Shown here one piece after another: positions 4,745 to 62,044 of a stretch of 64,000 nt of DNA. The DNA is taken from positions 1-64,000 of the IMG/VR virus record IMGVR_UViG_3300045988_119787; one strand, given 5' to 3'. This stretch comes from a virus. The position numbers were made by a program, and so were the translations under genes. A model generated the notes under the pieces. The model was not told the DNA's origin, searched no databases, and was given only the letters and a program-made list of their open reading frames with translations. The first letter of the stretch is position 1. Each line of letters begins with the position of its first letter.

Positions 4745-4849
4745 AAATCTCCATTTTTTTTATTTGCAAAGAATCTTCATTTATGAAATAAAAACCACAT
4801 AAATCGTCCTTCAACCTTATCAATTCTAGATGAGCGCATTATCCTGCAC

Positions 4850-5326: not shown

Positions 5327-5367
5327 TTGGAATACCGCAAAACGTACCCCCAAATATTATATATTTG
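5327..5367 (+). promoter_or_regulatory. Late promoter copy 1: TTGGAATACCGCAAAA element plus -7 box TATATTTG
   Basis: TTGGAATACCGCAAAACGTACCCCCAAATATTATATATTTG. The element-to-box offset is 33 nt, identical to the other three copies. Confidence 0.65.
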
Positions 5368-5394
5368 CCCTCGAAAACTCAAATAATTGCAATT

Positions 5395-26980: not shown

Positions 26981-27036
26981 AATCTCAATCAATTTAAGAA
27001 AGGGGTATGCCCACTTTTGAGCACACCCCAAACTAG

Positions 27037-29979: not shown

Positions 29980-29981
29980 TC

Positions 29982-30475: not shown

Positions 30476-30484
30476 TAGATAGTT

Positions 30485-30667
30485 ATGAAAACAGAAGAAT
30501 GGGTTATTCTCATAGTATTTGTGTTGGTCGCCATTGAAAGATGCGGTGGTATGAATAAAGATGGTTCCGATAGAGGCGATACTTGGTATGAAGATATAAG
30601 CCTGGGAGTGCCAAACAACACTCCCATTCTTCTTTATCTATATTCTGTTTACTATCCTATCCGTTAG
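30485..30667 (+). CDS. Small membrane protein (60 aa)
   Basis: TM helix WVILIVFVLVAI. Confidence 0.4.
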   Translation: MKTEEWVILIVFVLVAIERCGGMNKDGSDRGDTWYEDISLGVPNNTPILLYLYSVYYPIR

Positions 30668-31530
30668 TCACCAGTTTGCTCCACACCTCCAATATTTATT
30701 GAAGAATAATTGCATTCTGATTTCAACTTCTTGATTGCAGCCTTTGCTGCTTCACTAGGAGTATAGGCAGATGATGTCCAAATCACAATATTCTTGTTTG
30801 AATCCTTGTTGCCTGTAAGATTTGACATATCTACCAACATGTTATTAACACTATCATTGTTATCAATAAAAACTCCTGCGCCTATATCTAACATATTTCC
30901 TGACACTTTGGAATTTGGGGCCCATGATGTAATAGTTCCACTAATTGCTTTCAAACTATTAGGAAGTGATGAAGGATTGTCTATTACCGTTCCTAGATAT
31001 TTCTCCAGCTTAACCGTTTTCATCAAGATTTCATCTGGAAAAATAATCCAAGTAGTATCTACAACATCTTCCGGATGAGCAAGTTTATCAATAGTAAATA
31101 TTTCTTTACTTGCATTTCTAATCCTATATAAGTGAATATATTCGAAATCACTCGGACTTTTGTATGGAGTAATGAAAACACCATCATAGTTTGGAAAATA
31201 GTATTTTCCCTTAATGGTGATAGTTGTTACTCCAGTATTAGGGAACTTGACAGCGTAATCTGAAATAGTCTCATCTTGAATATCTGCAAATCTAAGTGTA
31301 GTGTACTTTTTACCATTCGTTTCAAAATTACGCTGAAAGTAAGCCCCATTATCCAAGGTTGCCTCGAAATCTCCTCCTATGCTTTTTACAAAAGCTATCA
31401 TTCTCATAGAAATATAGGAATACAAAGTTTCCTTGGATTCTTTTGACACAATGAATTTAAATTCATTCAGTTTCGGAAGATTATCATTATCTACCGAACC
31501 ATAAAGTTTTGATATTAAACACTTTACCAT
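30664..31530 (-). CDS. Hypothetical protein downstream of the tail fibre gene (288 aa), possible fibre-associated or receptor-binding protein
   Basis: ORF track. AT-rich like the adjacent fibre gene. Function inferred from position only. Confidence 0.45.
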   Translation of the reverse strand: MVKCLISKLYGSVDNDNLPKLNEFKFIVSKESKETLYSYISMRMIAFVKSIGGDFEATLDNGAYFQRNFETNGKKYTTLRFADIQDETISDYAVKFPNTGVTTITIKGKYYFPNYDGVFITPYKSPSDFEYIHLYRIRNASKEIFTIDKLAHPEDVVDTTWIIFPDEILMKTVKLEKYLGTVIDNPSSLPNSLKAISGTITSWAPNSKVSGNMLDIGAGVFIDNNDSVNNMLVDMSNLTGNKDSNKNIVIWTSSAYTPSEAAKAAIKKLKSECNYSSINIGGVEQTGD

Positions 31531-31548
31531 ATTATTTATTTTTTTTAA

Positions 31549-34500
31549 TTATGATAATGAATTAATTAAATTATCAACCAAAGGAAGTCGCTCCTCTAAC
31601 CATTTCTTTACACGATATATGCTATCATAATGTCCAAGATAGAATGGTCTTTCTGAATAGTATTTTGTTACAGGAGACACGTTGGTGCAATCCTTAATAA
31701 CCTTAAATGCAAGATGCTCGAATACTACATAACTACCAGCAGTATAAGTTGTATCTTTATTCCATACCTTCTGACCAGAAGCTGTGATTCCTGCATCAGT
31801 ATATGTACATGGGGTATAGTATTCTGTGTTTATGTTACTATCCCTATGACAAGGAGATTGCTTCCATCTATCATACTCCTGCTTAAAATCATCTGTTCCA
31901 ATTCTAGAACACCAATCAGTAAGAAGGTTAATGATGTTGTCAGCAGTAAGTATAGCCTTTCTGAGTTCAGAATATCTTTTCTTCAACTCTGTTGCAAAAT
32001 ACTTATATACCCAATATGTTCCACCATATCCCTTTTTGTTTCCCATCAAGCTGATTGGCTCCATAAAATTATCTTTTGGTGAGAAGCTGAAAGTGCCATC
32101 AAAGAAATCTCCAAACACACCATCTAGGTCATAAGGATATACACCAAATCTTACTCCATTCCAAGAACCAATTTGCCAATTCTTACCAAATCCATCATAG
32201 TTAGCTATAACGTTTGAGAAACAAAGATAATCAATAATGCCATCTACATCATATCTGTTATCAATTTCATTCTTTATATCATCTTTGGTCTTGCTGCCAG
32301 CTTCTATTTGTGCTTCTACTTCAGTAAGTTCTGTATCATATTTACTTAGGGCAATGATATACTTTTTTACTTGAAATGATAGTTCCATATTCTTATTGGA
32401 AGCATCATAACTTTCAGATGTATCATCTATAAGCTCCTGCACTTTGTTTTTGTCTGCATCATATTTACTACCATCCATACAGATAAGAGACTTAGGGTTT
32501 CTTATCTCAAATCCCTGCTCACTCATCGGATTCCATGCAGTACTTGGCAATGTACCATTTGCAGAAAATAGGTTTTGTCTAATAAAACCATCCAAGTGTA
32601 TATTCTCAGCTTTATTCTTTGACATTTTCATATTGTCACGATGTTTCTTTAATTGCCAAGAAAAAACACCTAAGAACTCTCCTTCGAAATAGACTATGCA
32701 AGGAAATCCATCAGGAAAAGTTCTTGCTTCATCACCAAAGTCATAAGCAATTTCTGCATTTTGATTTATGCCATAAGATGCAGATGTGGAATCTTTATAG
32801 TATCTCTTATAAGCCCTGTCATTATGCAATCCACGACTTTTTGATATTTCATCAAACAATTTATAGCAAACAACTCCTGCACCTCTAAAGGCATCAGTAT
32901 AATATGCCTTAAAATGAAAACTGTCTTGTGATACCCAATTACCGATTTTTACTTTGCAGGTATCATCACCAATCCATTCATCATTGCATATAACTACTGC
33001 AAAATTCTTCTTTGCCAAATAGAGTGAACTACTTCCTTGCGCATTGAGAATTACACGTTTCTTAAAGTATATGCCTTCTAATGTCCATACTTCTATCCAT
33101 GCATGTAGATTCTGGGTTTTAGATGTTGGCATGTTTGATACTCCTGAAATGTTAACTATAGCCTTTCTTGGTTGATTTGGGATTCTTATATGATCATCAT
33201 TGCTCATGTCACAAGCATTGATGTTATATCCTTTACTTTTCAAATATTTAATGAAATCATTTCCGTCTTCAACATGGAGGCTGGCAACACGCATTTTTTT
33301 CTCAACCTTTGTACCATCTTTTTCACGGAAACCAAGAATTTTATCATCAGAATCAGTTATCAATTCCATGCGTTCCTCTTGGTCTTCAAAGGATTTTTTT
33401 GAATTTGCTACATCTTCATTGATAAGTGTTTTACCTACCTCCTTATTAACCTTTGTATCAAACGTTTCTGATTTCAAGTCATACACATAATGGCTTCCAT
33501 CATTGTATGTAGCAGAAAGAATCCTTCCGTCTGCATCTTTCTCTACTGCAAGGTACTCAGGATTCTCCTGCAAAGAGAAAATATCAAGAAGTTCTTGTAG
33601 ATTGGTATCTATTGTACCTACCTTCTCCTGCAATGATGCAAGGTCTGATTGAAGCTGAGAGATAACTTTCTTCAAGGCATTGACTGCATGAATCTCACCA
33701 ATGACCTCTCCGTCTCTTCTAAGACCAAGTAATACTTTATCGTCAGTAGTAACCCAAGCAGCAAAGTATTCTTCGCTCTGAATGACGTGATACATTTCAT
33801 TAAGAGGATAATATGGCTTGCCAGTTGCTCTGTAGAAGCCAAACAGTACCTTATCATCTGAATCCACTATAGCTTTGAGAAATTCTTCATTCTCAATTAT
33901 TCTAAAGCACTCTTTTACTTCATCTTCAATGAGTGATTTGCCTTCTTCCTTGTCAACCTTTGTATCTTGAAGATTCTTGATGTCCTCTCCAAACTTAGTA
34001 TTGAGACTATTGAGGTTTGCAAGAATGCTTGTAAGGGTCTGCGTATTCTCAATCTCAGCAAAGAACTTCTTCAACTCATTCATGGTATCAATGACATTTG
34101 TTGTGTCCTCATCACCCATGATGGTTGCTACTCTCTCTGCAAGAAGAGTTACTTGTGACTGCAATCTGTCCTCTACAGCACTTGTCTTACCAAATACTGG
34201 AGTGGCATCCCATTGGATACCAAAGAGAAGCTTGTCCTCTGCGTCCACCTTGGCAAAGATGAACTCTTCATTCTGAATGTAGCGGAAAGGAGTTTCTACT
34301 ACAGTTCCTTCCTCATCCTTGATAGCTACTTTATCTACTACTTCCTGCATTGTGCCAAGAGTCTGCTCTGTCTGCTCTCTAGAATCATCAGCCTTCTGGG
34401 CTGCTTCATTGGCTTTTAATGTAGCTTCTTCTGCCTTGGTTGTGGCAGCTTTAGCTTGCTCTGTAGCCTGAGCAGATGCTGTTGTTGCATTGGTTGCTAA

Positions 34501-37889: not shown

Positions 37890-38369
37890 TTACTCGTTTT
37901 CGTTAAAGTCTGGGAAAACAAGACCAGCCTTAGAAGCATGCTTCATGGCAGTAGTAAGGGTCTTGCATTCCTTGTCAAAACGATTATTTACGTAATTGAT
38001 AACCTCGTCTGCTGTGCGAATGTCTCTTACCTCTTCTTTCATTGGAGGCTGAGTTGTCTTCTTGACAGGCTCATTTGCGACTCCCGGCTCAACATTCGGC
38101 TCTAATGCCGCTTTCTTCTCCTCTTCAAGTTTAGCCTTTTCGCCAGGGAACTCTTCTTCCTCATGGTCGAGAACAATGGTGTTGCTGGCAAAAAGCAAGC
38201 TAGACTCAAGTAAATCCTGTGCGTAACGATTACGAAGCGTAATTGATGGATATTTGTTAGTTACCACATTGCCATTCGTAAAATTGTATCGCATTTGATT
38301 ACCGTGCTTACCAAGAAGCAGATAGCTAATATTGTTGTTGTTTACTCTTGCTTTATATGTCTTAATCAT
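37890..38369 (-). CDS. Virion-module hypothetical protein (159 aa), possible capsid decoration or accessory protein
   Basis: ORF track; immediately downstream of the putative major capsid gene. Confidence 0.45.
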   Translation of the reverse strand: MIKTYKARVNNNNISYLLLGKHGNQMRYNFTNGNVVTNKYPSITLRNRYAQDLLESSLLFASNTIVLDHEEEEFPGEKAKLEEEKKAALEPNVEPGVANEPVKKTTQPPMKEEVRDIRTADEVINYVNNRFDKECKTLTTAMKHASKAGLVFPDFNENE

Positions 38370-38387
38370 ATTTTCTAATTTTAAAAC

Positions 38388-38416
38388 GGAGGCAGGGCAT
38401 TTGAACCTCTGCCCCC
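38388..38416 (-). terminator. Hairpin after the putative capsid gene (attenuator or RNA-stabilising stem)
   Basis: On the minus strand GGGGGCAG pairs with CUGCCUCC (8 bp including one G-U), then a U/A-rich tract. Confidence 0.35.
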
Positions 38417-38448
38417 GTGGATATATATTTGGATGATAGAGACTCCTG

Positions 38449-40143
38449 TTACTGAGCTACATCCTGACCTGTATAGACAGTCCAAGCGCTGCCGGTATAA
38501 TAGTATACAGTACCAGCCTCGTACGTAACATCATCAGTAGGAGAATTAGTACCCTTCTTTACGTAGTCCTTTGTAAGAGCAACCTTCATGCCCTTTGCAG
38601 GAGTATCAGGAAGTTTATTCATTGAAATGATAGCATTGAGCGATTCAGTTGCAATCTTTGCGATTCTATCCTTTGGACCAACCAAGATAGAGTTGAAGCC
38701 ACGAAGTGCAACAGAATCTGCCTCCTGATGAATCCAACGCTTAGCGTCACGAACTTCGCCACCACCCGTAGACATATCGTTGGTCTGTTCCTTCTTGCCA
38801 ATCTTCACGTAACGTCGAGAAGCCTTAGGGTCAAAGATTACCATAAAGTCGGACATACCCACAAGGTCGAGATTCTGACACCAGACGAAATCAAGCGAGC
38901 CGAATGTATCCTTGAAACGTTTGAAGTTAAGATCAAACTCGTTATGATTGATGAAGTCATTCTGGTGGCTACCCTCCAGCTTGATATTCTCCAAACGCTC
39001 AATAGCATTCTTTCCGCAGAATGCGAAGCAGCGGTTGTTCTCTGAGAACTCAGTAAACTGGAGCTTAGAAATTGCGATAAGGTCAGCCAATGTATAGGTA
39101 TCGTCAATACCGTAGGTATTTGTCAACTGGTTAATGATACCCTCAGAGGTATAAACGTCCTCTATCTGACCATCACCCGTTTCTACCTTGAAACGAGACT
39201 TACAGCCTAAGAGGTAAGTACGCTCTGCACGCAGATTATACTTGATGATTGCGTCTGTTTTAAGGTCGGCAACAGTAATAGGCTGCTCCTTCTTAACCTT
39301 CTCGTAATCATCGGTGAAGACAATGTTCAAAAGCTTCTTCTGAACATATACTTCCTTCTCACGTGGCTGATAGTTCTCTGGGGTAATTGTAAGCTGAGAC
39401 TCGGATGCAGCAGAAGATGCAGCAAGGAATGTGGCGCCAACAGGAATCTCAGGACAGGTCATGTTGTCAAGATTCAAGCGTGTATCGCCGGCATTCTTTG
39501 GCTTACCATTAACCGCCTGAAGAGTAGCCTTCTTGCCGTTAGCTTCGATAACAAAGAGCATCAGATAACCCTCTCGCTTCTCCTGAGAGCCTTCTGCGTA
39601 ACCAGCTACTTCCGGAACGATAACGGTAGTGCCCTTGTAGAATGGACGAATAGAGCCAGAGAAATTGGTTGAGTTAATCTCAATGGTGTCTCCAGTTTCG
39701 ATTTTTACGGTAACCTGACCATCAAGAGTATCACCACCAACACGCATGTGCGAGATTGACCAGTTACTGATTGTGACGGTCTTAGCCATACGGCGAACGA
39801 TTGAAAGGATCGGTGTCTTATAAGGGTAGAACTGAACAATCTCCTTATCCCATTCCTTATCAAGCAAACCGCCCTCTTTAAGCTGAGTAGAAGAAGCCTG
39901 AGAGCCTGTAAGGTCTTGACCATCTTTATTGCCGCCTGGACTAAGGCGATCAGACTTGCCTGCCTCTACTGGTTCGGTAGCCTTAACGGTTGCATCGCTT
40001 GCAAGATTAGGACCTTCGTCACCAATCTGAGGTTCAACGAGATCTGCCATAGCCATTGCGCCACCGCCTGTAACTACTGCAAGAATCATCAGAATCATCT
40101 TACAGATGAACTGAGTAGAAAAATAATTAATTACTTTCTTCAT
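38449..40143 (-). CDS. Putative major capsid protein (564 aa; true start may be an internal Met, e.g. MAMADLV)
   Basis: Size, position directly after the acidic scaffold-like gene, and divergence from the portal operon. Not confirmed by any motif. Confidence 0.5.
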   Translation of the reverse strand: MKKVINYFSTQFICKMILMILAVVTGGGAMAMADLVEPQIGDEGPNLASDATVKATEPVEAGKSDRLSPGGNKDGQDLTGSQASSTQLKEGGLLDKEWDKEIVQFYPYKTPILSIVRRMAKTVTISNWSISHMRVGGDTLDGQVTVKIETGDTIEINSTNFSGSIRPFYKGTTVIVPEVAGYAEGSQEKREGYLMLFVIEANGKKATLQAVNGKPKNAGDTRLNLDNMTCPEIPVGATFLAASSAASESQLTITPENYQPREKEVYVQKKLLNIVFTDDYEKVKKEQPITVADLKTDAIIKYNLRAERTYLLGCKSRFKVETGDGQIEDVYTSEGIINQLTNTYGIDDTYTLADLIAISKLQFTEFSENNRCFAFCGKNAIERLENIKLEGSHQNDFINHNEFDLNFKRFKDTFGSLDFVWCQNLDLVGMSDFMVIFDPKASRRYVKIGKKEQTNDMSTGGGEVRDAKRWIHQEADSVALRGFNSILVGPKDRIAKIATESLNAIISMNKLPDTPAKGMKVALTKDYVKKGTNSPTDDVTYEAGTVYYYTGSAWTVYTGQDVAQ

Positions 40144-40163
40144 TTTATACTTATATTTATGGA

Positions 40164-40949
40164 TTAATTACTTCTAATATCATCAAAGAAACTTTCACGT
40201 TTCTGTTTTCTGGCAGGCTTGTTTCCTGCACCCGAACTAGACAGCGAAGGAGGAATGCCCTCTGCTGCAGAAGAGCGGACCTTATTCTGAATCTTCTCAT
40301 TTCGGGCTTGCATGGCAGCCTCTTCACGTGCGGAAGAAATATCAGAATCGTAGTTGTAGGCATTCTTGAAGAGATTCCATGTCTCGGAAGAGATATTGCC
40401 CTCTTCTGCATCCTGAATGACGCCCCAAACCTTACCGTAAAGGTCGTTTGCCTCATCATCGGAAAGACCTAACTTTAGCAAAGCCTCATAAGACTTTCTC
40501 ATATTTTCATCCAACTGCTGGCTGTGCTTCTCCTGCTCGGCTACCTTCTCTTGGAACTTGACAATCTGATCGGCAACCTTCTTGGAAAGCTCTTCATCTT
40601 CAAGAGCAGCCTTGATGTCAATACCCTGCGAAGCCATCCACTCCAATGGGTGCATGCCCTTGCGTGTAGCATCAAGAACCATGGCGCCAAGCCACTTGTT
40701 GTTGTCAAGCATCTTACTCAATGCCTGACCGTTCTTTTCATACTCGCCGAGTCTGTCAGCATCATCATTCATGGCAGCATAACGGGCTTCCTTGTCTTCG
40801 AAGTCGATGTCAGAATGGCGCTGCGAGAAACGCTTGGAGAAGGCTGTACGATTAGGTCGCTCGTCAACAGGTGGAGTCTCCTGCTCTGCTGGAGCTTCCT
40901 GCTGCGTAGCATCCTCTGCGTTCATTTTTTCTAATTCTTCTTTTGTCAT
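40164..40949 (-). CDS. Putative scaffolding protein (acidic, helical; start moved to the ATG at 40949, since the track start 40979 is a TTG inside the -7 box)
   Basis: E/D/K/A-rich helical sequence. First gene after a late promoter and immediately upstream of the capsid gene. Confidence 0.5.
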   Translation of the reverse strand: MTKEELEKMNAEDATQQEAPAEQETPPVDERPNRTAFSKRFSQRHSDIDFEDKEARYAAMNDDADRLGEYEKNGQALSKMLDNNKWLGAMVLDATRKGMHPLEWMASQGIDIKAALEDEELSKKVADQIVKFQEKVAEQEKHSQQLDENMRKSYEALLKLGLSDDEANDLYGKVWGVIQDAEEGNISSETWNLFKNAYNYDSDISSAREEAAMQARNEKIQNKVRSSAAEGIPPSLSSSGAGNKPARKQKRESFFDDIRSN

Positions 40950-40976
40950 AGTTATAACTGTTTGAAAACTTTTCGG

Positions 40977-41017
40977 CAAAAATGCAAAGAAAACAAAGAA
41001 GTTTTGCGGTGTTCCAA
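40977..41017 (-). promoter_or_regulatory. Late promoter copy 2 (leftward): TTGGAACACCGCAAAA element plus -7 box CATTTTTG
   Basis: Minus strand reads TTGGAACACCGCAAAACTTCTTTGTTTTCTTTGCATTTTTG; 33-nt offset. Confidence 0.6.
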
Positions 41018-41036
41018 ATCAGTATATATCAGCCGA

Positions 41037-41077
41037 TTGGAACACCGCAAAGAAAGCTTTGATTTTACCTATTTTTG
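41037..41077 (+). promoter_or_regulatory. Late promoter copy 3 (rightward): TTGGAACACCGCAAAG element plus -7 box TATTTTTG
   Basis: TTGGAACACCGCAAAGAAAGCTTTGATTTTACCTATTTTTG; 33-nt offset; 30 nt upstream of the portal ATG. Confidence 0.65.
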
Positions 41078-41106
41078 CGCCTATAATTAACAATGTGTAA
41101 ATAAAT

Positions 41107-43125
41107 ATGGCAAAGGCAAAGTTATTAACACTTAGTAGAGTGATGCCTCGGCATAACAAATATGATTCGGTCAAGGCTCGAAAGCGGAGACAGGAGCACG
41201 GCAAGGACTGGGAGCTTCTTACCCGATGTAAGAACGACTGGAATAACCTGAGTGGCGTAAGGGAGACGAGAGCAAGAACCATGAGATACTGTAACGGTGA
41301 ACAATGGAGCGACACCATCAGAGTTTATCATCGTGGCTATTGGGAAGAAATGTCTGAGAAAACCTATATGCAGAAGCGAAATCAGACACCAATGAGCAAC
41401 AACATCATGATAAGTATCTTGGAATCTATTGCCGGTCTCTACGCCAAGCAGGGCACGGAACCCGTCTGCTTTGCAAGAGATAATGACTCCCGACAACTGA
41501 GCGACATGATGAGTGCTACGATGCAATGCAACTGGCAGACCACCGGCATGCAGGATTTACTGAATCACCTTATCAAGGATTATCTGCAGGGCGGTCAGAT
41601 GTTCGTGAGGGAAAGCTGGGAAGACCGAGAACTTGAAATGCCCGATGCTTGGACGGACGCAATGGAACCGGACCACATGTTCTTTGAGTGCGGAAGCGAC
41701 CCAAGACACAATGACGTTTGTCTGATAGGTTGTCTGCATGACGTAAGCAAGGAAGACCTGTATCAGAAGTTTGCCAGAAGGGAATACGGACTGACGGTTG
41801 ATGATCTGAATAGGATTTTTGACATTCATGATGTAGACGATAGCAGTTATGGCTACGAGTTCAACGAGGAAAAGGCTTTGGACAATCTCAGCTTCGATTA
41901 CACCAACAAGGGCAGACACTACGTAAGAGTGATTGAGGTATGGAGTACGGAAACCAAGCCTAGACTGCAATGCTTCGACCCTATTGCCAAGAACATGAAC
42001 AACGCTTGGTTCCGTGTGGATTTGGAAGACACGGCTATGATAAACAAGCTGATTCAGGAAAACGAGAAGCGCAAGAAGCAGTATGATGAATACGGTGTGC
42101 CGGAAGAAGACCGTGCCTACATCACATCGGAAGATCTTTCTGATAAATACTGGTACTATACCTTCATGGCTCCTGACGGTACGGTCCTCTGTCGTGGCGA
42201 ATCTCCTTACGATTTCAAGAGTCACCCATACACCATGAAGCTTTATCCGTTCATCAACGGAGAGATTCATCCTTTCATGACCAACGTGATAGACCAGCAG
42301 CGCTACATCAACCGCCTGATCGTGATGAACGACATGAGTATCAGAAGCAGCTTCAAGGGATTCAAGATGATTCCTACAACCGTACTGGGTGGAAGAACAC
42401 CAGAGCAGTTCATGGAAGAGGCAATAGAATACGATGGATGGATATTCTACACACCAAAGAGAACGATGCCGAACGTGAAGCCAGAGATTATCACTTCGAA
42501 TGCGGTAAACATCGGAACAAACGAACTCTTGCAGATAGAGCTGAACCTTATCAGAGAGGTGACCAACGTGAGCGGTGCCTTGCAGGGCAAGACTCCTTCG
42601 GCTGGTACATCGGCTGCAAGATATGCACAGGAGAGTCAGAACGCAACCACTTCGCTCTACACCATCCTATCCGATATGGAGATTTTTACGGAGAAGCTGG
42701 CAATGAAAAAGTGCTCAGTTATCCAACAGTTCTACGAGGACGGAAGAAAGATTTTCAACAAGGACGGTCTGAACACCTACAGCTATGACAGGCTATCAGC
42801 AAGAGACATTCATTTCAAGATAAGCATCAAGAATGCAGCTGCATCTGCTGCCTTCAACACTTTGCAGAATGACGACTTGAAGGAGTTGCTGCAGATGGGT
42901 GCAATCAACCTGATTCAGTACTTGCAGAATGTAAACAAGCCTTATGCAGACAAGTTGCTTGCCAGCGTGCAGGAACAGCAGGCGCAGCTGGAACAGATGT
43001 ATCAGCAACAACAGGCGATGGCTCAACAGCAAGGAGGCGGTCAGGTAGTAAATGGCGTGGTACAGGGTGCAGACCAGAACGCAGTGGCACAAGCTATGAA
43101 TTTGTATAACAATCAAGCAGCATAA
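41107..43125 (+). CDS. Portal protein (672 aa)
   Basis: RYCNGEQWSD and NNIMISILESIAGLYAKQGTEPVCFAR are portal-like N-terminal motifs. Size, Q-rich C-terminus and location in the head module agree. Confidence 0.7.
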   Translation: MAKAKLLTLSRVMPRHNKYDSVKARKRRQEHGKDWELLTRCKNDWNNLSGVRETRARTMRYCNGEQWSDTIRVYHRGYWEEMSEKTYMQKRNQTPMSNNIMISILESIAGLYAKQGTEPVCFARDNDSRQLSDMMSATMQCNWQTTGMQDLLNHLIKDYLQGGQMFVRESWEDRELEMPDAWTDAMEPDHMFFECGSDPRHNDVCLIGCLHDVSKEDLYQKFARREYGLTVDDLNRIFDIHDVDDSSYGYEFNEEKALDNLSFDYTNKGRHYVRVIEVWSTETKPRLQCFDPIAKNMNNAWFRVDLEDTAMINKLIQENEKRKKQYDEYGVPEEDRAYITSEDLSDKYWYYTFMAPDGTVLCRGESPYDFKSHPYTMKLYPFINGEIHPFMTNVIDQQRYINRLIVMNDMSIRSSFKGFKMIPTTVLGGRTPEQFMEEAIEYDGWIFYTPKRTMPNVKPEIITSNAVNIGTNELLQIELNLIREVTNVSGALQGKTPSAGTSAARYAQESQNATTSLYTILSDMEIFTEKLAMKKCSVIQQFYEDGRKIFNKDGLNTYSYDRLSARDIHFKISIKNAAASAAFNTLQNDDLKELLQMGAINLIQYLQNVNKPYADKLLASVQEQQAQLEQMYQQQQAMAQQQGGGQVVNGVVQGADQNAVAQAMNLYNNQAA

Positions 43126-43128
43126 GAT

Positions 43129-43620
43129 ATGGAATTACAGATAACGATAGACTGGAGTCATGTCAAGAATGCAGTAAAGAAGCATCTTGCCATCATGGGC
43201 AAAAGGCAGAAGAACCCGGAAGGGAACACTGCCTTTGCTGGAATCACCCTATCAAGTGCGGAAGAGGACGTGATGAAGCAATACATCAATGCTGCCGTGG
43301 AAACCTTTGTGGGAGAAATGGCGCAGCTGGTAACCTATTATGATAGTGGCGATTTTCTGATATTTAAGATAAACAATTCACGCTGGGCAGGGACAGAGAC
43401 GAGCGTAACGGTTCCATTCGAAGGGAATCTGATAGGCTATGTTGTGGCTTACGTGGCAAACGCCGTACTGGGAATGAATTATCCGGAGCTGGCAAAGAAG
43501 TATGAGAGCGACATGAGCAATCACCTGAATGCCGCCATCAAGCTGGTTTTTCACAAGACCCCACCGGCAAGCAGCAACACAAGTTTGACAGACATGACTG
43601 GCGAAATAATAATTGACTAA
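43129..43620 (+). CDS. Putative head-tail connector/adaptor (163 aa)
   Basis: LSSAEEDVMKQYINAAVETFVGEM resembles gp6-like connector proteins. Follows the portal gene. Confidence 0.4.
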   Translation: MELQITIDWSHVKNAVKKHLAIMGKRQKNPEGNTAFAGITLSSAEEDVMKQYINAAVETFVGEMAQLVTYYDSGDFLIFKINNSRWAGTETSVTVPFEGNLIGYVVAYVANAVLGMNYPELAKKYESDMSNHLNAAIKLVFHKTPPASSNTSLTDMTGEIIID

Positions 43621-43632
43621 AAAGGATAAGTT

Positions 43633-44424
43633 ATGATCATAAAATTTCAAATTATCAAATCGGTAGTGATGGAGGCAGTAAAGTCGACAACCTACCTGAA
43701 AGCAAAGATAGATACTGCGGCAGACGAAAAAGCAGCGAAAGTAAGCTTTAACGAGGCTGCCGGCGACGATGAGGTTCACGAAAGAACGCTGACCCACGAC
43801 TTTGATACAGCATTGGAAGTATTGAAGACCATCTTCGTAGACTATCTTGTACCAACGCCTCAAACTATTGGCGACAACGCCATCTACTACGGAAGCAGAA
43901 CGGATGATATAGTGGAGTTCACCCTATCAGTATCAAGACGTTATAACGGAACGCTGACCGACGCGCTGGCAAGGCTGTCAGCAAGATACGTGGAGGACTA
44001 CATGATATACCAGTGGTGGCTGAAAACAACAAACCTGAAACAAGCGGAGCCATACCAAGCTACACTTGCATCAGATGAGATAGCCATCAGAAAGTGCTTC
44101 GTGATGAGTGGTCCGCTGGTCCCAAAGGTTCCTTATTCTTCCACATTGACCGCCAAGGTTGACGGAAGCGACACGGACGGTGGCGTTACAATAGCAGTAG
44201 AGAACGATGAAGTGACCCTATCCTACTCTATTGACGATGGGGCTATTGACGATATTGAGGCAAGAAGCAGCGACCCTTGTATCTTGGAAGTTCACAGAAT
44301 GCAGGAGCCTCATACCTTTTGGCTGAAACCGCTGAACACTGGAGTGGCTTACGTGACATTATTCTCACGTCACAGCGACAATCTGAAAAAGGAAATAGAA
44401 GTAACCATAGCAAAGGAGGTATAA
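43633..44424 (+). CDS. Virion protein (263 aa) with an Ig-like (Big_2-like) C-terminal domain
   Basis: C-terminal VTLSYSIDDGAIDDIEARSSDPCILEV...GVAYVTLFS pattern. Confidence 0.4.
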   Translation: MIIKFQIIKSVVMEAVKSTTYLKAKIDTAADEKAAKVSFNEAAGDDEVHERTLTHDFDTALEVLKTIFVDYLVPTPQTIGDNAIYYGSRTDDIVEFTLSVSRRYNGTLTDALARLSARYVEDYMIYQWWLKTTNLKQAEPYQATLASDEIAIRKCFVMSGPLVPKVPYSSTLTAKVDGSDTDGGVTIAVENDEVTLSYSIDDGAIDDIEARSSDPCILEVHRMQEPHTFWLKPLNTGVAYVTLFSRHSDNLKKEIEVTIAKEV

Positions 44425-44425
44425 G

Positions 44426-45034
44426 ATGGAGTTCAATTCATTACACCCTACGCATTTCCTCAGAGAGAAAGGATGGAAGCCTGAGCCAAATCCTTTCCTT
44501 CCGAAACCTCCACGTCCTGCCCATGTGTATTTCGACAAGCACATCTTTATCTATTCCAACCAACTTTGGTATGATATAGATGCAACAACCCACATGATGG
44601 GCAGAGTAAGACAGGAGAGCGACCCAAATATAGCGAATACCGTTCCGACAAGTGAGAACACGCAGGAAAGACCACTTTTCTATAGATGGTTCGACAAATA
44701 CCTGAAAAAGGCAGAAGGTCTGCTTTCTGCCTACATCATGAAACCGCAGGGCGTGGTAAGAGACAATGCCTTGAAGGAATGGGATGAGAAGGAAATGTGG
44801 CTGAGGATGCCAGATTACTGGGACGATGCAAGACTAGACGAACTGGTGCAGGCAATACATCATTATATATCAACAGGCGCTCTGTATGAATACTTCCTGC
44901 TGACATTGACAAGCAAAGACCCGCTGACCGTTGACAAGGCTACACAGCTGGAAGACGATGAGCTGGAGATTCTAGACGCAGCCAATGCCAGCAAGCCGGG
45001 TGGAATGATTCATACATTGAAGCCATTTGGATAA
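44426..45034 (+). CDS. hypothetical virion-module protein (202 aa)
   Basis: ORF track; 1-nt gap from the previous stop. Confidence 0.5.
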   Translation: MEFNSLHPTHFLREKGWKPEPNPFLPKPPRPAHVYFDKHIFIYSNQLWYDIDATTHMMGRVRQESDPNIANTVPTSENTQERPLFYRWFDKYLKKAEGLLSAYIMKPQGVVRDNALKEWDEKEMWLRMPDYWDDARLDELVQAIHHYISTGALYEYFLLTLTSKDPLTVDKATQLEDDELEILDAANASKPGGMIHTLKPFG

Positions 45035-45051
45035 AAAGGAAAGGAAGGCTT

Positions 45052-45450
45052 ATGGAAGATTTGGAATATGACGAGTTTAAATCGGTAAGGGAATTTCAGA
45101 AGGAGAAGAAGGAAAAAGCCAAGACCATTCTTCCGGCAAGGAAGAGTGCGCAGAAAGAATATATCAGAGATTTCCTTGCAAGGAATCAGGAAAAGTTTGA
45201 AGAGTGCATGGATCAGCTGGCAGAATATGACCCTAAGACATACGTCACCATCTACAAGGACCTGACCAAACACATGATACCTAAGCAGAGTGAGGTAAGC
45301 GTGACGCATGGACTGGACGAAGACTTCAAGCAGCTGGCAGCACTGGCACAGACCAAGACAGACAACAATGCCTTGGACGTTACGCAAGTTCCGCAGATAA
45401 TGGATGCGGATTTTGAAGAAATAAAGGAGTTGGGCGATGGCATTAGTTAG
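45052..45450 (+). CDS. Candidate small terminase subunit (132 aa)
   Basis: Position only: a small charged protein whose stop overlaps the TerL start. Confidence 0.3.
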   Translation: MEDLEYDEFKSVREFQKEKKEKAKTILPARKSAQKEYIRDFLARNQEKFEECMDQLAEYDPKTYVTIYKDLTKHMIPKQSEVSVTHGLDEDFKQLAALAQTKTDNNALDVTQVPQIMDADFEEIKELGDGIS

Positions 45451-47569
45451 AGAAGTAGATATTGATGAACTCGTTGCCGAGAACAAAAGACGGTATGATG
45501 AGATTTATGGCACCTACGACCCTTGGACGGGCGAAGGGTGTTATGATTTTGAACATCGCGAACTGCTGGAACTTCCGGACTTCATGATTTCGAAGATGTG
45601 GGTCCCCAAAGAATGTATGCGTACCTTATTATATAGGGGACTGAAACAGCTGGGCAGCATGAAGGAATACATCATCAGAGTATGGGGCAAGCAGTATGAA
45701 GAGAAGAGTTATTACACCAGACAGCTTAAAATGTTGCTCACCTTCGAAATCATGAAAGTCAGATTCAGAGAAGACCCTGAATTTGCCCTTTATTCTACCG
45801 ACAAGATTGAGGATAAGGTAAGCGGTGACATGATACCTTTTAAGCTGAACTATCCTCAGCGAAAACTCTTGAAGATTTTTGAGGACTTGAGAACCGGTGG
45901 CAGGGCTATCCGTGTAGTTATCCTAAAAGCTCGACAATGGGGTGGTTCTACCCTCACCCAGCTTTACATCAAATGGTTGCAGGATTTCAGAAAGGACGGT
46001 TGGAATGCTATCGTACTTGCCCAGCAGAAGAACACAGCAAAGAAAATCAAGGCAATGTATCGAAAGGCTTTGGAGAACCAACCGGGATGGACGATTGGCA
46101 GACCGGGAGCGAAGCTTCAATTCTCTCCTTACGAGAACTCGCCAGACGATTTCCAAGTTACAGACGGAATGAGGGCAATCCGAAGAAGTACACTGACTGT
46201 GGCTTCTTTCGAGAACTTCGATTCCGTGCGAGGTAGCAACTTCCACTGCGCTCACTATTCCGAGGTTGCTTACTGGAAGAAGACTCCCGAGCATGATCCT
46301 GAGGGTGTGATTTCGTCAATATCGGGTGGTATCAGAAACCAAGAGGATAACCTAGAGGTATTCGAGAGTACCGGCAAGGGTAATTCGGGATTCTTCTATG
46401 ACAAGTGCCAGTTGGCGATGGACCCAAAGAACAATGATGCCTATTCGTTCCTGTTCATTCCTTGCTTCTTTATCGAGCATGATATGGAAGAGGTGAAGGA
46501 TGAGCGTGCCTTTGCAAGATGGCTGCTGGAGAACAGAGACAAGAGTACCAACCCGAAGGGCTACCGAGAAACAGGAAAGTTCTTCTGGCGAATGTGGGAG
46601 AAGGGTGCTTGCTTCCAAGCCATTGAGTGGTACAGAAACTTCCGCAACAAGTTTACCACCCATTCATTCTGTGCTACAGAGGCGCCAGTGGACGAAGAGG
46701 ACGCTTTCAGAAACTCAGGTAACTTGGTATTCAATCCGTACAGTATTGATGATTTGCAGAAGAAGTACAAGCGTGAACCGCTCTATACGGCAGACATCAT
46801 TGTTGACGGAAACAAGAATGACTCAACCATTGAGAAGTCGAAGGTGAGCATCAGAACAGATGGTGACGGAGACTTGAAAATTTGGGCTGTTCCTAACGTC
46901 CTGCAGGTGGAGAACAGATACTTGGTGAGCGTGGATATTGGCGGTAAGAGTACCACTTCTGACTATACCGTCATGACGGTGATAGACCGATTCGGAATGA
47001 TTCCGACCGTCAAGGGCAAACCGAAGGTAGTAGCTAGATACAGAGGTCATGTAAGACACGACAAGCTGGCGTGGATGGCTGCTGCCCTAGCCCATTACTA
47101 TGATGATGCCCTGCTGGTGATTGAGAGTAATACGGCTGACCGAGAGAAGAACAACAATACGGAAGGTGACCACTTCGGAAGCATCCTGAACGAGATTGCC
47201 GACTACTACGATAATCTTTATCAGCGAACCACAAGTCCGGAAGACGTGACCGATGATGTGCTTGCTAAGTACGGTTTCCAAACCAACAAACTGACAAAGG
47301 GATGGATAATTGACAACTTGGAGCAGTTTGTGGATGATATGCTCTGGGATGAGCCAGACAAGGAAATGTATCATGAGCTGAGAATCTATGAGCGACATGA
47401 TGATGGAAGTCTCGGCAACATCGTGGGCAACGGTAATCATGATGATGTTCTGATGAGTACGGCAATCGGTCTTTGGGTGAGTGCCAACGACATGGAGAAG
47501 CCTCAATGGAAGAAGAAAGAAAAAACAAGAAGCGGTGGTGACGGTGTGTATACTGCTGCAAAAATATAA
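45437..47569 (+). CDS. terL: Terminase large subunit (710 aa)
   Basis: Walker A-like KARQWGGST; coupling region FHCAHYSEVAYW; RNaseH-like nuclease motifs YLVSVDIGGKSTTSDYTVMTV and NHDDVLMSTAIG. Confidence 0.85.
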   Translation: MALVREVDIDELVAENKRRYDEIYGTYDPWTGEGCYDFEHRELLELPDFMISKMWVPKECMRTLLYRGLKQLGSMKEYIIRVWGKQYEEKSYYTRQLKMLLTFEIMKVRFREDPEFALYSTDKIEDKVSGDMIPFKLNYPQRKLLKIFEDLRTGGRAIRVVILKARQWGGSTLTQLYIKWLQDFRKDGWNAIVLAQQKNTAKKIKAMYRKALENQPGWTIGRPGAKLQFSPYENSPDDFQVTDGMRAIRRSTLTVASFENFDSVRGSNFHCAHYSEVAYWKKTPEHDPEGVISSISGGIRNQEDNLEVFESTGKGNSGFFYDKCQLAMDPKNNDAYSFLFIPCFFIEHDMEEVKDERAFARWLLENRDKSTNPKGYRETGKFFWRMWEKGACFQAIEWYRNFRNKFTTHSFCATEAPVDEEDAFRNSGNLVFNPYSIDDLQKKYKREPLYTADIIVDGNKNDSTIEKSKVSIRTDGDGDLKIWAVPNVLQVENRYLVSVDIGGKSTTSDYTVMTVIDRFGMIPTVKGKPKVVARYRGHVRHDKLAWMAAALAHYYDDALLVIESNTADREKNNNTEGDHFGSILNEIADYYDNLYQRTTSPEDVTDDVLAKYGFQTNKLTKGWIIDNLEQFVDDMLWDEPDKEMYHELRIYERHDDGSLGNIVGNGNHDDVLMSTAIGLWVSANDMEKPQWKKKEKTRSGGDGVYTAAKI

Positions 47570-47580
47570 ACAAAAGAGCT

Positions 47581-50244
47581 ATGGAGAGAAACTTGGAAAG
47601 AAAGACTTTGAGTTTTGGTAAGGGAATGACGAATGTGCCGAGTGACTTGCTTTCAGACGATTCAGAATTACTGGAGTCTGACGGCTTTATCTTTCGTGAT
47701 GGGGAAATGAAACCTATTCAGAATCCTGTCAAGATTGGTGAGATTGCGGGGCAGAAGATCATGTACGTTCACAAGATGGCAGACTATGAGAACATCATTG
47801 CTTACGATGAAGACCGGACTATCTACTGGTATATTAGAGGAAGCAACGGAATCGAAATGCCGCCTAGTGGAGTTCCTGCAAGTTTTGAAGTTGGAAAGGT
47901 AAAGGACATCAAGAGTGTGGGCAATACGCTGGTTGTTGCTACAAAGGGTGGCTTGCATTACCTTAAATATAAAGGGAACAGGTATAAGAACCTAGGAACG
48001 GAGTTGCCTAAGCCAGAAGTGCATTTCTATATGTTTTATGCAGGAAACGTAAAAGCTGATTCAAGCATTAAATATGAAGGGTTCGTAAATCGTAAAAAAC
48101 TAACCATCCAATATGATGCCAATGGTAACGTGTGCAAAATCCAAAAGCTCCGCTACATAAACAATAGAGGTGATACAGGCTTGAACAATATTAATGTTAC
48201 AACAAATCCCCCAATGAGCAAGGAAGAGTTTTGGGCGTATGGAGTGACCAACGATGAAGATAACAACAAGAACTTGTTTCAGTCAGCTGTAGTTGGTCAT
48301 GTGTCTTCCATTATCAACAAAGCAGCAGAAGATAATATTTTCCTGTTTCCGTTTTTCGTAAGGTCTGCGCTTAAATTATTTGATGGAACGTACGCACGCA
48401 TTTCAAATCCGGTTGTCTGCTATCCATGCGTCACAGCAAACTGCAATTCCTATGTTTACGAAAAGGAAGCGAGTATCAATCTGTACGGCTATACTCTTTC
48501 CTATTCCATTTCTATACCAAATAGTGATGATTGGAAGGATATCGTTAAGAATATCAGCCTGTTTGCTACCAAAGGCGTGCAACCATTCAAGCTGGATAAA
48601 GACTGGAAGTTTGCCTATCCCGACGAAGTGTACGGAAAAGCATTTAATGACTTCCTAAGTGGCGATGTTTATAAGAAATCTATATTTTCAAGAAATGGTG
48701 GTTCTACAGACGAGCCATGTATGAGAATCATGCCTGAATATAAAACGGAAGACGATATTAGGGAAGAACTACTTGACAGAAGCGTGTTTTATAAGATAGA
48801 ACAGATAGGAATCAACTCTTCTAAGTTGAACGGCACAACACAGAAGGCAGAAATAAAGGACGGTGTTTTGTCCAATCTTGAGACACAGGAACAGCTGCAG
48901 AAAGATGATTACTACGGCTGGGCACACTACGTTTTTGACAAGATGTTTGCATACAACGGGAGACTGAACTCTTTTGGCGCAAAGAGAAAGCCTTTCGATG
49001 GGTTTAATCATTTCACGGCTCTAGATGGTGAACCACGAAACGAATACAAATACTACGTGAAGATTGAAGCAAACTCCATGTCAACATGGGTAGAATCAGA
49101 GGCGGGCATCGGAAGGACATGTGCGCTGACCGGTTGGTTCTATTATCCTGACCCTAATGCGTCAGAGGTAATCATATATGATCCACAGCATCAGAGAGGA
49201 ATCCGATTTGAGCTGCAACAGCATCCTCGTCTGAACGGTGCTTACCATTTCGGAAAACTGGAAAATGATGTAAGTTGGGATACAAGCATAAGCATTCCTT
49301 CAACTGACAACGGTGCTCAGGAAGATTTGAACTCTCAGATATTTACGTCTGTCGTGAACAACCCGTTTGTGTTTGAAGCATCTGGAGACAATACAGTAGG
49401 CACCGGCAGAATATTGGGCATTGCAGCCAACACCGAGGCGGTAAGCCAAGGACAGTTCGGTCAATATCCATTGATTGTATTTACGGACGAAGGAATCTAC
49501 GGCATGTCGGTAAATTCAGAAGGTTTGTATAGCGCCAGCCATCCAATTTCAAGAGAAGTATGTAATGAAGATTCACCATTTGTGCCTACAGACAGACTGG
49601 TATACTTTACGTCAAAGAGAGGATTGATGGCTTCTAGCGGTGGTCAGGTAGCGTGCATGAGCGAACAGCTCAGAGGGCGCACACCAAGAAACTTCATATC
49701 CGTGGGTGATGGAAAGTTCCTGGAGTTTTTGGCGAATTGTCTTATCGCCTACGATTATCGGGATTCCCTGTTGAGAATATTCAGCCAAGACAAGGACTAC
49801 CAATATATATATAATATGGTAGACAAGACTTTCTCTATAGCGAACAGCGGAATAATGGCAAAGGCTGTAGTGAATGATTATCCTGACAACCTGATTCAAG
49901 ACATCGACGGAAATGTATATTCGCTCATGGCTAAGCCGGACATCAACGATGATACGGACAACTACAGAGGCTCCTTCACTACCCGACCATTGAAGCTGGG
50001 CGGTAGCATGAACTTGAAATCGCTCAGAGCAGTGAAGCATCTGTTTGATTCCGATAACGGAAAGATTGCCATGGAGATTTACGGAAGCAACGACTGCAAG
50101 CACTGGTGCAAATTGATTTCGCTCGGTGGCAAGCCTTGGAAATACTTCACGTTCAAATATGCGTTGACGAACTTCAAGGCAACAGATTCCTTTGCAGGAA
50201 GCATTGTTGAGGTACAGAACAGAAGAGAAGACAAAATAAGATAA
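47581..50244 (+). CDS. Large virion-module protein (887 aa), function unknown (possible tail/nozzle component)
   Basis: ORF track. Last gene of the rightward head operon; a hairpin follows. Confidence 0.55.
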   Translation: MERNLERKTLSFGKGMTNVPSDLLSDDSELLESDGFIFRDGEMKPIQNPVKIGEIAGQKIMYVHKMADYENIIAYDEDRTIYWYIRGSNGIEMPPSGVPASFEVGKVKDIKSVGNTLVVATKGGLHYLKYKGNRYKNLGTELPKPEVHFYMFYAGNVKADSSIKYEGFVNRKKLTIQYDANGNVCKIQKLRYINNRGDTGLNNINVTTNPPMSKEEFWAYGVTNDEDNNKNLFQSAVVGHVSSIINKAAEDNIFLFPFFVRSALKLFDGTYARISNPVVCYPCVTANCNSYVYEKEASINLYGYTLSYSISIPNSDDWKDIVKNISLFATKGVQPFKLDKDWKFAYPDEVYGKAFNDFLSGDVYKKSIFSRNGGSTDEPCMRIMPEYKTEDDIREELLDRSVFYKIEQIGINSSKLNGTTQKAEIKDGVLSNLETQEQLQKDDYYGWAHYVFDKMFAYNGRLNSFGAKRKPFDGFNHFTALDGEPRNEYKYYVKIEANSMSTWVESEAGIGRTCALTGWFYYPDPNASEVIIYDPQHQRGIRFELQQHPRLNGAYHFGKLENDVSWDTSISIPSTDNGAQEDLNSQIFTSVVNNPFVFEASGDNTVGTGRILGIAANTEAVSQGQFGQYPLIVFTDEGIYGMSVNSEGLYSASHPISREVCNEDSPFVPTDRLVYFTSKRGLMASSGGQVACMSEQLRGRTPRNFISVGDGKFLEFLANCLIAYDYRDSLLRIFSQDKDYQYIYNMVDKTFSIANSGIMAKAVVNDYPDNLIQDIDGNVYSLMAKPDINDDTDNYRGSFTTRPLKLGGSMNLKSLRAVKHLFDSDNGKIAMEIYGSNDCKHWCKLISLGGKPWKYFTFKYALTNFKATDSFAGSIVEVQNRREDKIR

Positions 50245-50326: not shown

Positions 50327-50812
50327 TCAACTGAACCTATGAAACATTTTACGAAGAAATCCTATAGAATATCCTAACCAGAAGCAATATAGATGTAGAG
50401 TTCCATTGACATCATTCAACAGCATGGTAAAGAGAATGAACGGCATTGCCTTCTTGGTAGCCTCTTTCCACCTGCCGGTCTTTCCCCACATGATGCCGAG
50501 TGCGGAAAAGAGAAATCCCGACAACCCCATTGTCGGCTCTGTAACGAACATGGGCAGGAAGCTGGCTGCTACTGCTGTCACGAACGAAAGGGTTACATCT
50601 ATCTTATTCTTTATACTCCAAAGCACCATCAGATTGATGAGCAGATGGAATAAGTTGACATGAAAGAAGCTGTAGACGAAATGATTTTCAATCGGGCAAC
50701 CCTGATAGAAGCCTACGTGCTGCGTGCATAGAACCAGGCAGACAAGACTAAGAATCAGCTTGATCAGAAAGTTTCTTCTTGCGAAGGTCCATTTCCCTAT
50801 AACTCTTTCCAT
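50327..50812 (-). CDS. Rhomboid-family intramembrane serine protease (compact, 161 aa, six predicted TM helices)
   Basis: TM2 FFHVNLFHLLINL (GlpG-like H-x4-H-x3-N), TM4 MGLSGFLFSALG (GxSG catalytic Ser), TM6 TLHLYCFWLGYSIG (catalytic His, GxxxG). Confidence 0.8.
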   Translation of the reverse strand: MERVIGKWTFARRNFLIKLILSLVCLVLCTQHVGFYQGCPIENHFVYSFFHVNLFHLLINLMVLWSIKNKIDVTLSFVTAVAASFLPMFVTEPTMGLSGFLFSALGIMWGKTGRWKEATKKAMPFILFTMLLNDVNGTLHLYCFWLGYSIGFLRKMFHRFS

Positions 50813-51203
50813 ATCTTTTGCAATAATTGAAGATGAACATCATGTTCTTTGGCTTGATGAAGAATTCCGGTGCAGGCTCACTCACCAAGAACTGACAGAT
50901 GAACCAGAGCGATTTCCCAAGGAACTCTTTTTTCTGTGACATTTCCATCAGCTTATCATACAAGGAGTAATACATTCTCCTCTTGTTGGGCTTCATGTTG
51001 TCAACGGTTGAGAAATCGCCAACAACCATTTTTTCGAGCTTTCTGTACGCCTGCTTGGGAGATACATAATATCTCGGAGCTGGCGACTTCACCACCTTCT
51101 CGTATGCTTCCTGCTGCGAATGGCAGGTAGGGGCTATAGCACGATACGCCTTCATCAGGTCGTCCCTCTGTCTTTCAATCAGTTCGAAATTTGTCTTCGT
51201 CAT
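50748..51203 (-). CDS. hypothetical protein (151 aa from the ATG; the track start 51236 is a TTG)
   Basis: ORF track. -7 box 23 nt upstream of the ATG at 51203. Its 3' end overlaps the rhomboid start by 65 nt. Confidence 0.55.
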   Translation of the reverse strand: MTKTNFELIERQRDDLMKAYRAIAPTCHSQQEAYEKVVKSPAPRYYVSPKQAYRKLEKMVVGDFSTVDNMKPNKRRMYYSLYDKLMEMSQKKEFLGKSLWFICQFLVSEPAPEFFIKPKNMMFIFNYCKRYGKSYREMDLRKKKLSDQADS

Positions 51204-51225: not shown

Positions 51226-51233
51226 CAAATATA
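51226..51233 (-). promoter_or_regulatory. -7 promoter box (TATATTTG on the minus strand)
   Basis: Plus strand reads CAAATATA. Confidence 0.45.
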
Positions 51234-51325
51234 CAATTTATTTAGATTCTAACCAAATAAGCGTATAAAGATTTAAATAAGTTTAATATTAGACCGATTT
51301 TCATGGCATTACGAAAGAAAAAGCT

Positions 51326-51403: not shown

Positions 51404-51574
51404 ATGAGAACAAAACAGGAAACACCTCTCTCGGAAGAGGAGAAAGCCTTAGTTATGGAAGGCTTATTGAGTAGGAAGATTTGGAGGTTCTATGAACTTC
51501 TAGCAAAGTGGGCACCCATACTGTTGATGCTTGGCCATTGGTATGGAGTATGGGACTATGGGCGTTATCCCTAG
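51404..51574 (+). CDS. Small ORF (56 aa) below the track threshold, hydrophobic C-terminus
   Basis: Hand translation: MRTKQETPLSEEEKALVMEGLLSRKIWRFYELLAKWAPILLMLGHWYGVWDYGRYP. Confidence 0.35.
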   Translation: MRTKQETPLSEEEKALVMEGLLSRKIWRFYELLAKWAPILLMLGHWYGVWDYGRYP

Positions 51575-52288: not shown

Positions 52289-52329
52289 TTGGAATACCGC
52301 AAAACGTATTGGGAAGACCAGTAACTTTG
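52289..52329 (+). promoter_or_regulatory. Late promoter copy 4: TTGGAATACCGCAAAA element plus -7 box TAACTTTG, driving the lysis cassette
   Basis: TTGGAATACCGCAAAACGTATTGGGAAGACCAGTAACTTTG. The first 21 nt are identical to copy 1; 33-nt offset. Confidence 0.65.
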
Positions 52330-53785: not shown

Positions 53786-53788
53786 CGT

Positions 53789-62040: not shown

Positions 62041-62044
62041 ATTA

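Follow-up and report, generated by a model that had tools for sequence, protein, structure and literature searches.

A conserved box at four predicted late promoters of a gut Segatella prophage points to a phage-encoded late regulator

The window analyzed here, a 64-kb stretch of viral DNA (positions 1 to 64,000 of IMG/VR record IMGVR_UViG_3300045988_119787), is a gut Segatella (Prevotella) prophage. It encodes an integrase (289-1425), a P22-type portal protein (41107-43125, matching phrog_156), a protein with a weak terminase match (45437-47569) and an endolysin (52803-53348, matching phrog_181). An open reading frame (ORF) of 5689 aa (9038-26107, +) lies inside the first late operon, and a leftward early block contains RecT and metallo-beta-lactamase-fold genes. 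Homologues of the portal protein are named from Prevotella/Segatella copri, and related loci were found in Segatella and Leyella genomes. A blastn search of INPHARED at the 'distant' setting with positions 38000-45900 returned no match to deposited phages, and no Rfam families were found in the window. The operons predicted to be expressed late are the following:

5395-26107, + strand: late operon 1, with genes for ejection-like proteins and the 5689-aa ORF
40949 to 30664, - strand: leftward late operon, with scaffold-like, capsid-like (putative) and tail genes
41107-50244, + strand: rightward late operon, with the portal and terminase genes
52357-54100, + strand: lysis cassette, with a holin-like gene, the endolysin gene and genes for a 157-aa protein and an HTH_17 protein

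A previous model-made annotation of this DNA (the sequence-only reading) had named the same operons. The portal and endolysin matches, the weak terminase match and the 5689-aa ORF largely bear out its labels, and the scaffold and capsid assignments are putative.

The counterpart of the 5689-aa ORF in a related locus (L384) is 5506 aa long and has precomputed matches to ResIII, AAA_34, SNF2-related, Helicase_C_4 and LPD38. Given these helicase-type and LPD38 matches, the window ORF looks like a DarB-type 'polyvalent' ejected protein. The ~800 nt upstream of late promoter 1 (4570-5394) contain no convincing ORF, and this segment, together with the lysogeny genes to its left, is highly mosaic among relatives. 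The G+C content falls to 0.34-0.35 in positions 30000-34000, compared with ~0.45 elsewhere. This stretch takes in the ORFs at 29440-30667, which are small and secreted or lipoprotein-like, and the distal portion of a 1090-aa tail-fibre-like gene, and its composition suggests a recently exchanged host-range or moron module. A small early protein (61801-62139, -) has a crAss001_48-related domain (PF21825, E = 1e-14), which ties this temperate phage to a family of genes that was originally named in crAss-like phages. Finally, the segment 51404-51890 (+) contains a 56-aa ORF that overlaps a hydrophobic ORF (51531-51890) in another frame. Relatives of types A and B (types as listed below) keep the stop codon of the 56-aa ORF in an ungapped alignment, and the segment would contain a pair of small membrane proteins or else a programmed frameshift.

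Each of the four operons is headed by a late box, and the four late-promoter stretches align without gaps. Scanning both strands of the window for TTGGAAYACCGCAAA returned exactly four perfect matches, at 5327-5341 (+), 41037-41051 (+), 41003-41017 (-) and 52289-52303 (+), where simple arithmetic predicts ~2.4e-4 chance matches in 128 kb of both strands. Allowing three mismatches added five matches, which is the chance level (nine in total versus 3.05 expected from shuffles). In a second, box-agnostic scan, we searched for nAnnTTTG 15-45 nt before an ORF start and clustered the segments from -38 to -17; this returned exactly the same four sites and no others. The elements of the four promoters are as follows:

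5327..5342, + strand: late box of promoter 1, TTGGAATACCGCAAAA, heading operon 5395-26107
5360..5367, + strand: -7 box of promoter 1, TATATTTG, with the ATG at 5395, 27 nt downstream
41003..41017, - strand: late box of the leftward promoter, TTGGAACACCGCAAA, heading operon 40949 to 30664
40977..40984, - strand: -7 box of the leftward promoter, CATTTTTG, with the ATG at 40949, 27 nt downstream
41037..41052, + strand: late box of the rightward promoter, TTGGAACACCGCAAAG, heading the portal-terminase operon 41107-50244
41070..41077, + strand: -7 box of the portal promoter, TATTTTTG, with the ATG at 41107, 29 nt downstream
52289..52304, + strand: late box of the lysis-cassette promoter, TTGGAATACCGCAAAA, heading 52357-54100
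52322..52329, + strand: -7 box of the lysis promoter, TAACTTTG, with the ATG at 52357, 27 nt downstream

From the first T of the late box to the start of the -7-like box, the distance is exactly 33 nt in all four copies, and the first ATG of a long ORF follows the -7 box after 27, 29, 27 and 27 nt (promoter 1, rightward, leftward and lysis promoters, respectively). Every copy of the late box is oriented with its downstream gene and lies ~60 nt from the ATG. In the divergent pair, the two boxes are perfect inverted copies of each other over 15 nt, with 19 nt separating the arms. The ungapped alignment and fixed 33-nt spacing described in the sequence-only reading were confirmed, and the window has no fifth exact copy of the box.

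None of the four late promoters has a TTTG at 19-21 nt from its -7 box, as had been noted before. The int, 3655, 28235 and 29440 promoters likewise lack a canonical -33 TTTG, and among the promoters compared the textbook arrangement (TTTG, 20 nt, TATATTTG) occurs only at the promoter of the gene 50748-51203. Given that most non-late promoters also lack this element, the hallmark of the late promoters is the box and not the missing -33. The earlier statement that the element replaces the -33 box therefore holds by position, given that the 3' CAAA of the late box occupies the place of the Bacteroidota -33 TTTG, but not as a distinguishing feature. Taking the G of TAnnTTTG as -7, the late box spans approximately -47 to -32; it is asymmetric, not a dyad, and is not arranged in tandem iterons. 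The -7 boxes of all four predicted promoters fit the host (Bacteroidota) consensus.

A plain 15-mer scan of IMG/VR gave mostly chance matches, and adding the -7 box to the pattern retrieved true relatives. The close IMG/VR relatives carry the same four box copies and, being >95% identical, say little. More distant relatives were reached through four anchors: the portal protein (loci L135-L143), the holin-like protein (80 loci), the first gene of the giant-ORF operon (g5395; 80 loci) and the 50748-51203 protein family. In these relatives, from Segatella and other Prevotellaceae, the layout of box, ~18-nt spacer, -7 box and short leader is retained. The sequence of the box differs by lineage, with at least 16 types, and within one genome the late promoters share one box variant, with type G as a partial exception. 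The box types include the following:

Type A (window): TTGGAAYACCGCAAA
Type B: TTGGARCACGGCAAA
Types C, D and H, joint pattern: [CT]GGAAACACGG[AC]A
Type C: CGGAAACACGG[AC]AA
Type D: TGGAAACACGG
Type H: CGGAAAYACGGAA
Type G: TTGGAAYAC[GT][GA]CAA
Type E: TTAAATWACC[GA]
Type F: CTGAAACACCACAAA
Loci L141, L424 and L430: ACGAAAYACSG
Locus L384: AGTAAACACGGAA
Locus L385: TAGAAYRAGMAAA
Locus L387: GYTACWAARGGKAAA
Locus L393: TCAAAYWCGG, at four promoters arranged as two divergent pairs
Locus L396: GGTCGGATTCGGGA, at three promoters

Loci L135, L139 and L140 carry further variants. Type B differs from the window by a C-to-G change at position 10 (C10 -> G) that is present at all four orthologous promoters, and the orthologues of promoter 1 in types B, C, D and H each carry their own box at the same position. 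At the position of the lysis promoter, six box types were found among 80 IMG/VR relatives. Promoter 1 and the lysis promoter lie ~47 kb apart, and their box type agreed in 44 of 44 contigs (3 of type A, 25 of type B, 14 of type C and 2 of type D), despite the mosaic lysogeny genes directly upstream of promoter 1. When orthologous promoters were aligned, the upstream flank and most of the spacer had diverged, and the box core and -7 box were kept. In type G, box positions 10-11 vary among the three promoters of this type, suggesting that specificity is not equally strict at every position. Given that independent drift would make the promoters of one genome differ and that the opposite was seen, a trans-acting phage factor is the simplest reading. 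The dedicated late factor that had been postulated earlier is thus strongly supported, as a prediction from sequence comparison, by a box that is lineage specific and uniform within genomes.

Single relatives showed further peculiarities. In locus L040 (IMG/VR 3300045988_087486, ~697-760), the leftward copy of the divergent pair reads TTGGAATACCGTAAA, a C12T change relative to the window box, and the rightward copy is intact. The contigs of the close relatives L138, L140 and L139/L143 were binned in metagenome-assembled genomes (MAGs) labeled 'Bacilli bacterium', 'Oscillospiraceae bacterium' and 'Tannerellaceae bacterium', labels that are probably binning errors. One MAG contains two different members of the family (L139 and L143).

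We propose that a phage-encoded positive regulator of late transcription recognizes the late box in a sequence-specific manner and works with the host sigma-A polymerase in a class-II-type arrangement, a reading that we consider fairly probable. Given that a near-consensus host -7 box is retained at each late promoter, host sigma-A RNA polymerase would supply melting and -7 recognition, and the bound phage factor would supply or replace the upstream, sigma-region-4 side of the promoter. On its box, the factor would recruit or stabilize a sigma-A polymerase whose region 4 has no -33 to hold. Class-II-type activation geometry would explain why the spacing is fixed at 33 nt and why every box faces the same way as its genes. 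The inverted boxes of the divergent pair, 19 nt apart, would fire the head and packaging operons together. The factor itself would be made from a canonical promoter, necessarily controlled earlier in the cascade. Factor and site would co-evolve, leading to a private late-promoter specificity in each phage lineage, and this specificity would insulate the late genes from related co-resident phages. We infer that the factor activates rather than represses and that it uses host sigma-A.

We also considered that a sigma-like phage protein, or a remodeling of host sigma region 4 (compare T4 AsiA/MotA), could read the box as an extended -35, in which case the late promoters would form a separate holoenzyme class. 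The 3' half of the box does lie 18 nt from the -7 box, the position of sigma-70-family region 4, and the spacing is rigid; however, a box of 15-16 nt reaches well upstream of a -35 hexamer, and the downstream element is an ordinary host TAnnTTTG with no distinct -10. A resemblance to ECF -35 elements is seen in several box types (GGAAC or GAAAC), but no conserved CGT-type -10 follows 16-17 nt after GGAAC, either in the four copies or across box types. The GG (positions 3-4) and GC (positions 11-12) dinucleotides are 8 nt apart, not the 10 nt of a sigma-54 promoter (TGGCAC-N5-TTGC), and the element downstream is of the -7 type. Sigma-54 and ECF readings of the late box were set aside on grounds of spacing and for want of a conserved -10. 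Two orphans beside the lysis promoter, the basic 50748-51203 protein and the acidic DUF7841 protein (51826-52287), have no assigned fold and could be imagined in a sigma-like role, but Sigma70_r2/r4, MotA and AsiA domains are absent from the scanned ORFs. Taken together, we regard this alternative as unlikely.

It is also conceivable, and in our view quite unlikely, that the box is an operator for a dedicated late-gene repressor that keeps otherwise competent, -7-only promoters from firing during lysogeny or the early phase of infection. A repressor would be just as likely to co-evolve with its site, many window promoters with a good -7 and no -33 may be active unaided, and a site at -47 to -32 could occlude RNA polymerase. 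That site, however, lies wholly upstream of the -7 box and the start, which is the textbook position of a class II activator, and strict co-orientation and a spacing fixed to the single nucleotide are needed for activation geometry, not for occlusion. The Cro/CI-type gene 3655-3969 does not agree with box type, so that this reading would also require another, separate repressor. Copies at module boundaries and the 15-nt inverted repeat of the divergent pair might suggest a non-transcriptional repeat (for module recombination, packaging or replication) or a host-factor site, but this is very improbable given that every copy is gene-oriented, with an exact 33-nt distance to a -7 box and an ATG ~60 nt away, that tandem iterons are absent, and that a lineage-specific, genome-uniform sequence is unlike a host-factor site or shared recombination linkers.

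With an activator as the favored reading, we searched the phage for the protein that would bind the box. Domain scans with Pfam, PHROGs and NCBIfam, which covered essentially all ORFs (~70) and could miss very divergent sigmas, detected no Sigma70 (r2/r4), Mor/C, Ogr, MotA/AsiA, Q or RinA/ArpU protein. Antitermination of the lambda Q type works through a Q-binding element located between the -35 and -10 and a terminator that follows a constitutive late promoter; in the window, the ATG comes within 27-29 nt of the -7 box, and the Pfam scans gave no Q-family match. The sequence-only reading had listed the HTH protein at 53789-54100 among its candidate regulators. This HTH_17 protein (+), encoded at the end of the lysis cassette, is disfavored as the specificity factor: its putative recognition helix, VSRATFDRLVKEGRLPKG, does not change among box types A-D, and the few residues of the protein that vary do so irrespective of box type. 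It is more likely to be excisionase-like or small-terminase-like. The Cro/CI-like proteins (3655-3969 and 4006-4569) were also set aside, since they are mosaic and do not agree with box type. For the Cro/CI-like gene, identity ranges over 42-100% among type-A phages, and one type-C phage has a copy at 99%. Early-block proteins had been suggested as well. The mosaic early genes at ~54.5-58.5 kb are discordant, occurring in only a minority of same-type phages, and were rejected. Some distal replication genes are also congruent with box type.

The acidic DUF7841 protein (51826-52287, +) is encoded directly upstream of the lysis late promoter and has an acidic paralogue (26567-27031, -; 14% identity) in the 29185 operon, which has no box. 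A Foldseek search of PDB with its structure model (pLDDT 85.5) gave nothing with E < 0.1, and the DUF7841 block next to the lysis promoter is missing in L385 and L386.

If the proposed mechanism holds, the most likely box-binding factor would be the protein encoded at 50748-51203, an identification to which we give a little less than an even chance. The gene and its promoter are as follows:

50748..51203, - strand: candidate factor gene, encoding a 151-aa basic orphan (phrog_27246, function unknown)
51226..51257, - strand: promoter of the candidate gene, with TTTG (51257-51254), a 20-nt spacer and TATATTTG (51233-51226), and no late box

The protein has a net charge of about +11 and an internal duplication (PAPRYYVSPK / PAPEFFIKPK; hhalign probability 86%, E = 5e-6), and its structure was modeled with a pLDDT of 92.7. 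The conserved structural/lysis block has just two transcription units that are not part of a late operon, 51203 to 50327 (-) and 51404-52287. All of the holin-anchored relatives (80 of 80) encode a homologue of the candidate, as do all distant box-bearing loci that we examined; in the distant loci, its genomic position differs, is always outside the late operons and is usually divergent from a late promoter. The family comprises ~935 cluster representatives. The rhomboid-like membrane protein encoded at 50327-50812 (-; Pfam Rhomboid, E = 1.6e-5) is co-transcribed with the candidate gene and overlaps its end, and this pairing is kept in most relatives (L385-L388) and not in L384.

Candidate proteins from phages of the same box type share 75-100% identity (at least 97% for types A and C), and those from different types share only 46-74%. 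Over 16 types, its divergence correlated with that of the box (rho 0.46-0.59, Mantel p = 0.004), a co-variation inseparable from shared ancestry given that the structural/lysis block forms one linkage group per box type. When the rest of the protein was controlled for in a partial Mantel test, the putative recognition helices had no excess correlation left (partial rho 0.10, p = 0.25), and in an 8-type test against all shared proteins, others correlated with the box as well as or better than the candidate; neither test discriminated among the possible factors. No recognizable DNA-binding fold was found in the protein by Pfam or by Foldseek in PDB and BFVD: Pfam gave no match, including with long or fused family members, Foldseek of the model gave nothing with E < 0.1, and a profile search of PDB returned spurious coiled-coil matches only. 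The sequence-only reading had also named this protein, and it is the best candidate remaining, on the circumstantial evidence that it is present in all holin-anchored and distant box-bearing relatives examined, has its own canonical promoter and diverges in step with the box. More broadly, the family could represent a novel type of promoter-specificity factor in Bacteroidota phages that substitutes for sigma-A recognition of the -33 and has radiated into at least 16 mutually orthogonal protein/box pairs, which we consider possible, if rather doubtful.

Collectively, our findings suggest that the late box is a precise cis-element that defines the predicted late regulon of a widespread Segatella copri prophage family, and the natural series of diverged box variants bears the signature of a co-evolving factor. 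The system would be a phage late-promoter/activator system that pairs a new class of cis-element with what is probably a new protein family, in a phage group that is important and little studied. Confirmation of the factor would make late genes predictable in hundreds of uncultured phage genomes, explain the absence of cross-talk between related co-resident prophages and provide orthogonal inducible promoters for Prevotella and Bacteroides genetics. If the reading of the 50748-51203 protein is true, prophages that share a Segatella cell would not cross-activate each other's late genes, and the family would offer a ready-made library of orthogonal activator-promoter pairs for Bacteroidota.

Full-text literature searches turned up neither a late-promoter motif nor a late activator described for Bacteroidota temperate phages, and a 2026 preprint on Bacteroidales prophage induction hypothesized unnamed activators only. 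The late promoters resemble the canonical Bacteroides sigma-A promoter in having a TAnnTTTG-type -7 in all four cases at a typical distance to the start codon, and differ from it in lacking a TTTG at 19-21 nt, where the box ends in CAAA. At T4 middle promoters, a MotA box stands in place of the -35 and the host -10 is retained, with sigma appropriation by MotA/AsiA. The window promoters are similar in that a phage-specific box occupies the -35 place and the host -7/-10 element is kept; they differ in that the box is longer and lies further upstream, the phage is temperate, and no MotA/AsiA homologue was found with Pfam or PHROGs. The MarA/SoxS marbox and the lambda CII sites are class II sites that are asymmetric, orientation dependent and located at the -35 with fixed spacing, and MarA has two HTH motifs. 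The late box is likewise asymmetric and orientation dependent, abutting or overlapping the -35 region at fixed spacing. The two repeated modules of the 50748-51203 protein may be compared, as an analogy, with the two HTH motifs of MarA, whereas the protein has no AraC-type or other recognizable HTH fold.

RinA, ArpU and LtrC of Gram-positive temperate phages, P2 Ogr and P4 Delta are small late activators encoded by phages, and the packaging, head and lysis operons require them (for RinA, PMC3152322). RinA acts at one promoter upstream of terS, whereas the window phage has four late promoters. None of these activators has a sequence relative here as judged by Pfam and PHROGs (and NCBIfam for RinA/ArpU); given that the defining proteins are absent, membership in these or the other known families compared here is unsupported.

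The closest functional analogue is activator C of phage Mu at Plys, PI, PP and Pmom. Mu has four late promoters (lys, I, P and mom) with a non-consensus -35 and a C site that adjoins or overlaps it (PMC4461284). The window phage differs from Mu in that Pfam detected no Mor/C-family protein in its ~70 ORFs, in that its box is asymmetric and not a dyad, in that its host is a member of the Bacteroidota with a -33/-7 promoter grammar, and in that box specificity is strongly diversified between related phages. Like Mu, it has four late promoters with a poor or absent -35 and one common site at or next to the -35 position, and, in the mechanism that we propose, it would combine the host polymerase with a phage-encoded activator as Mu does with C.
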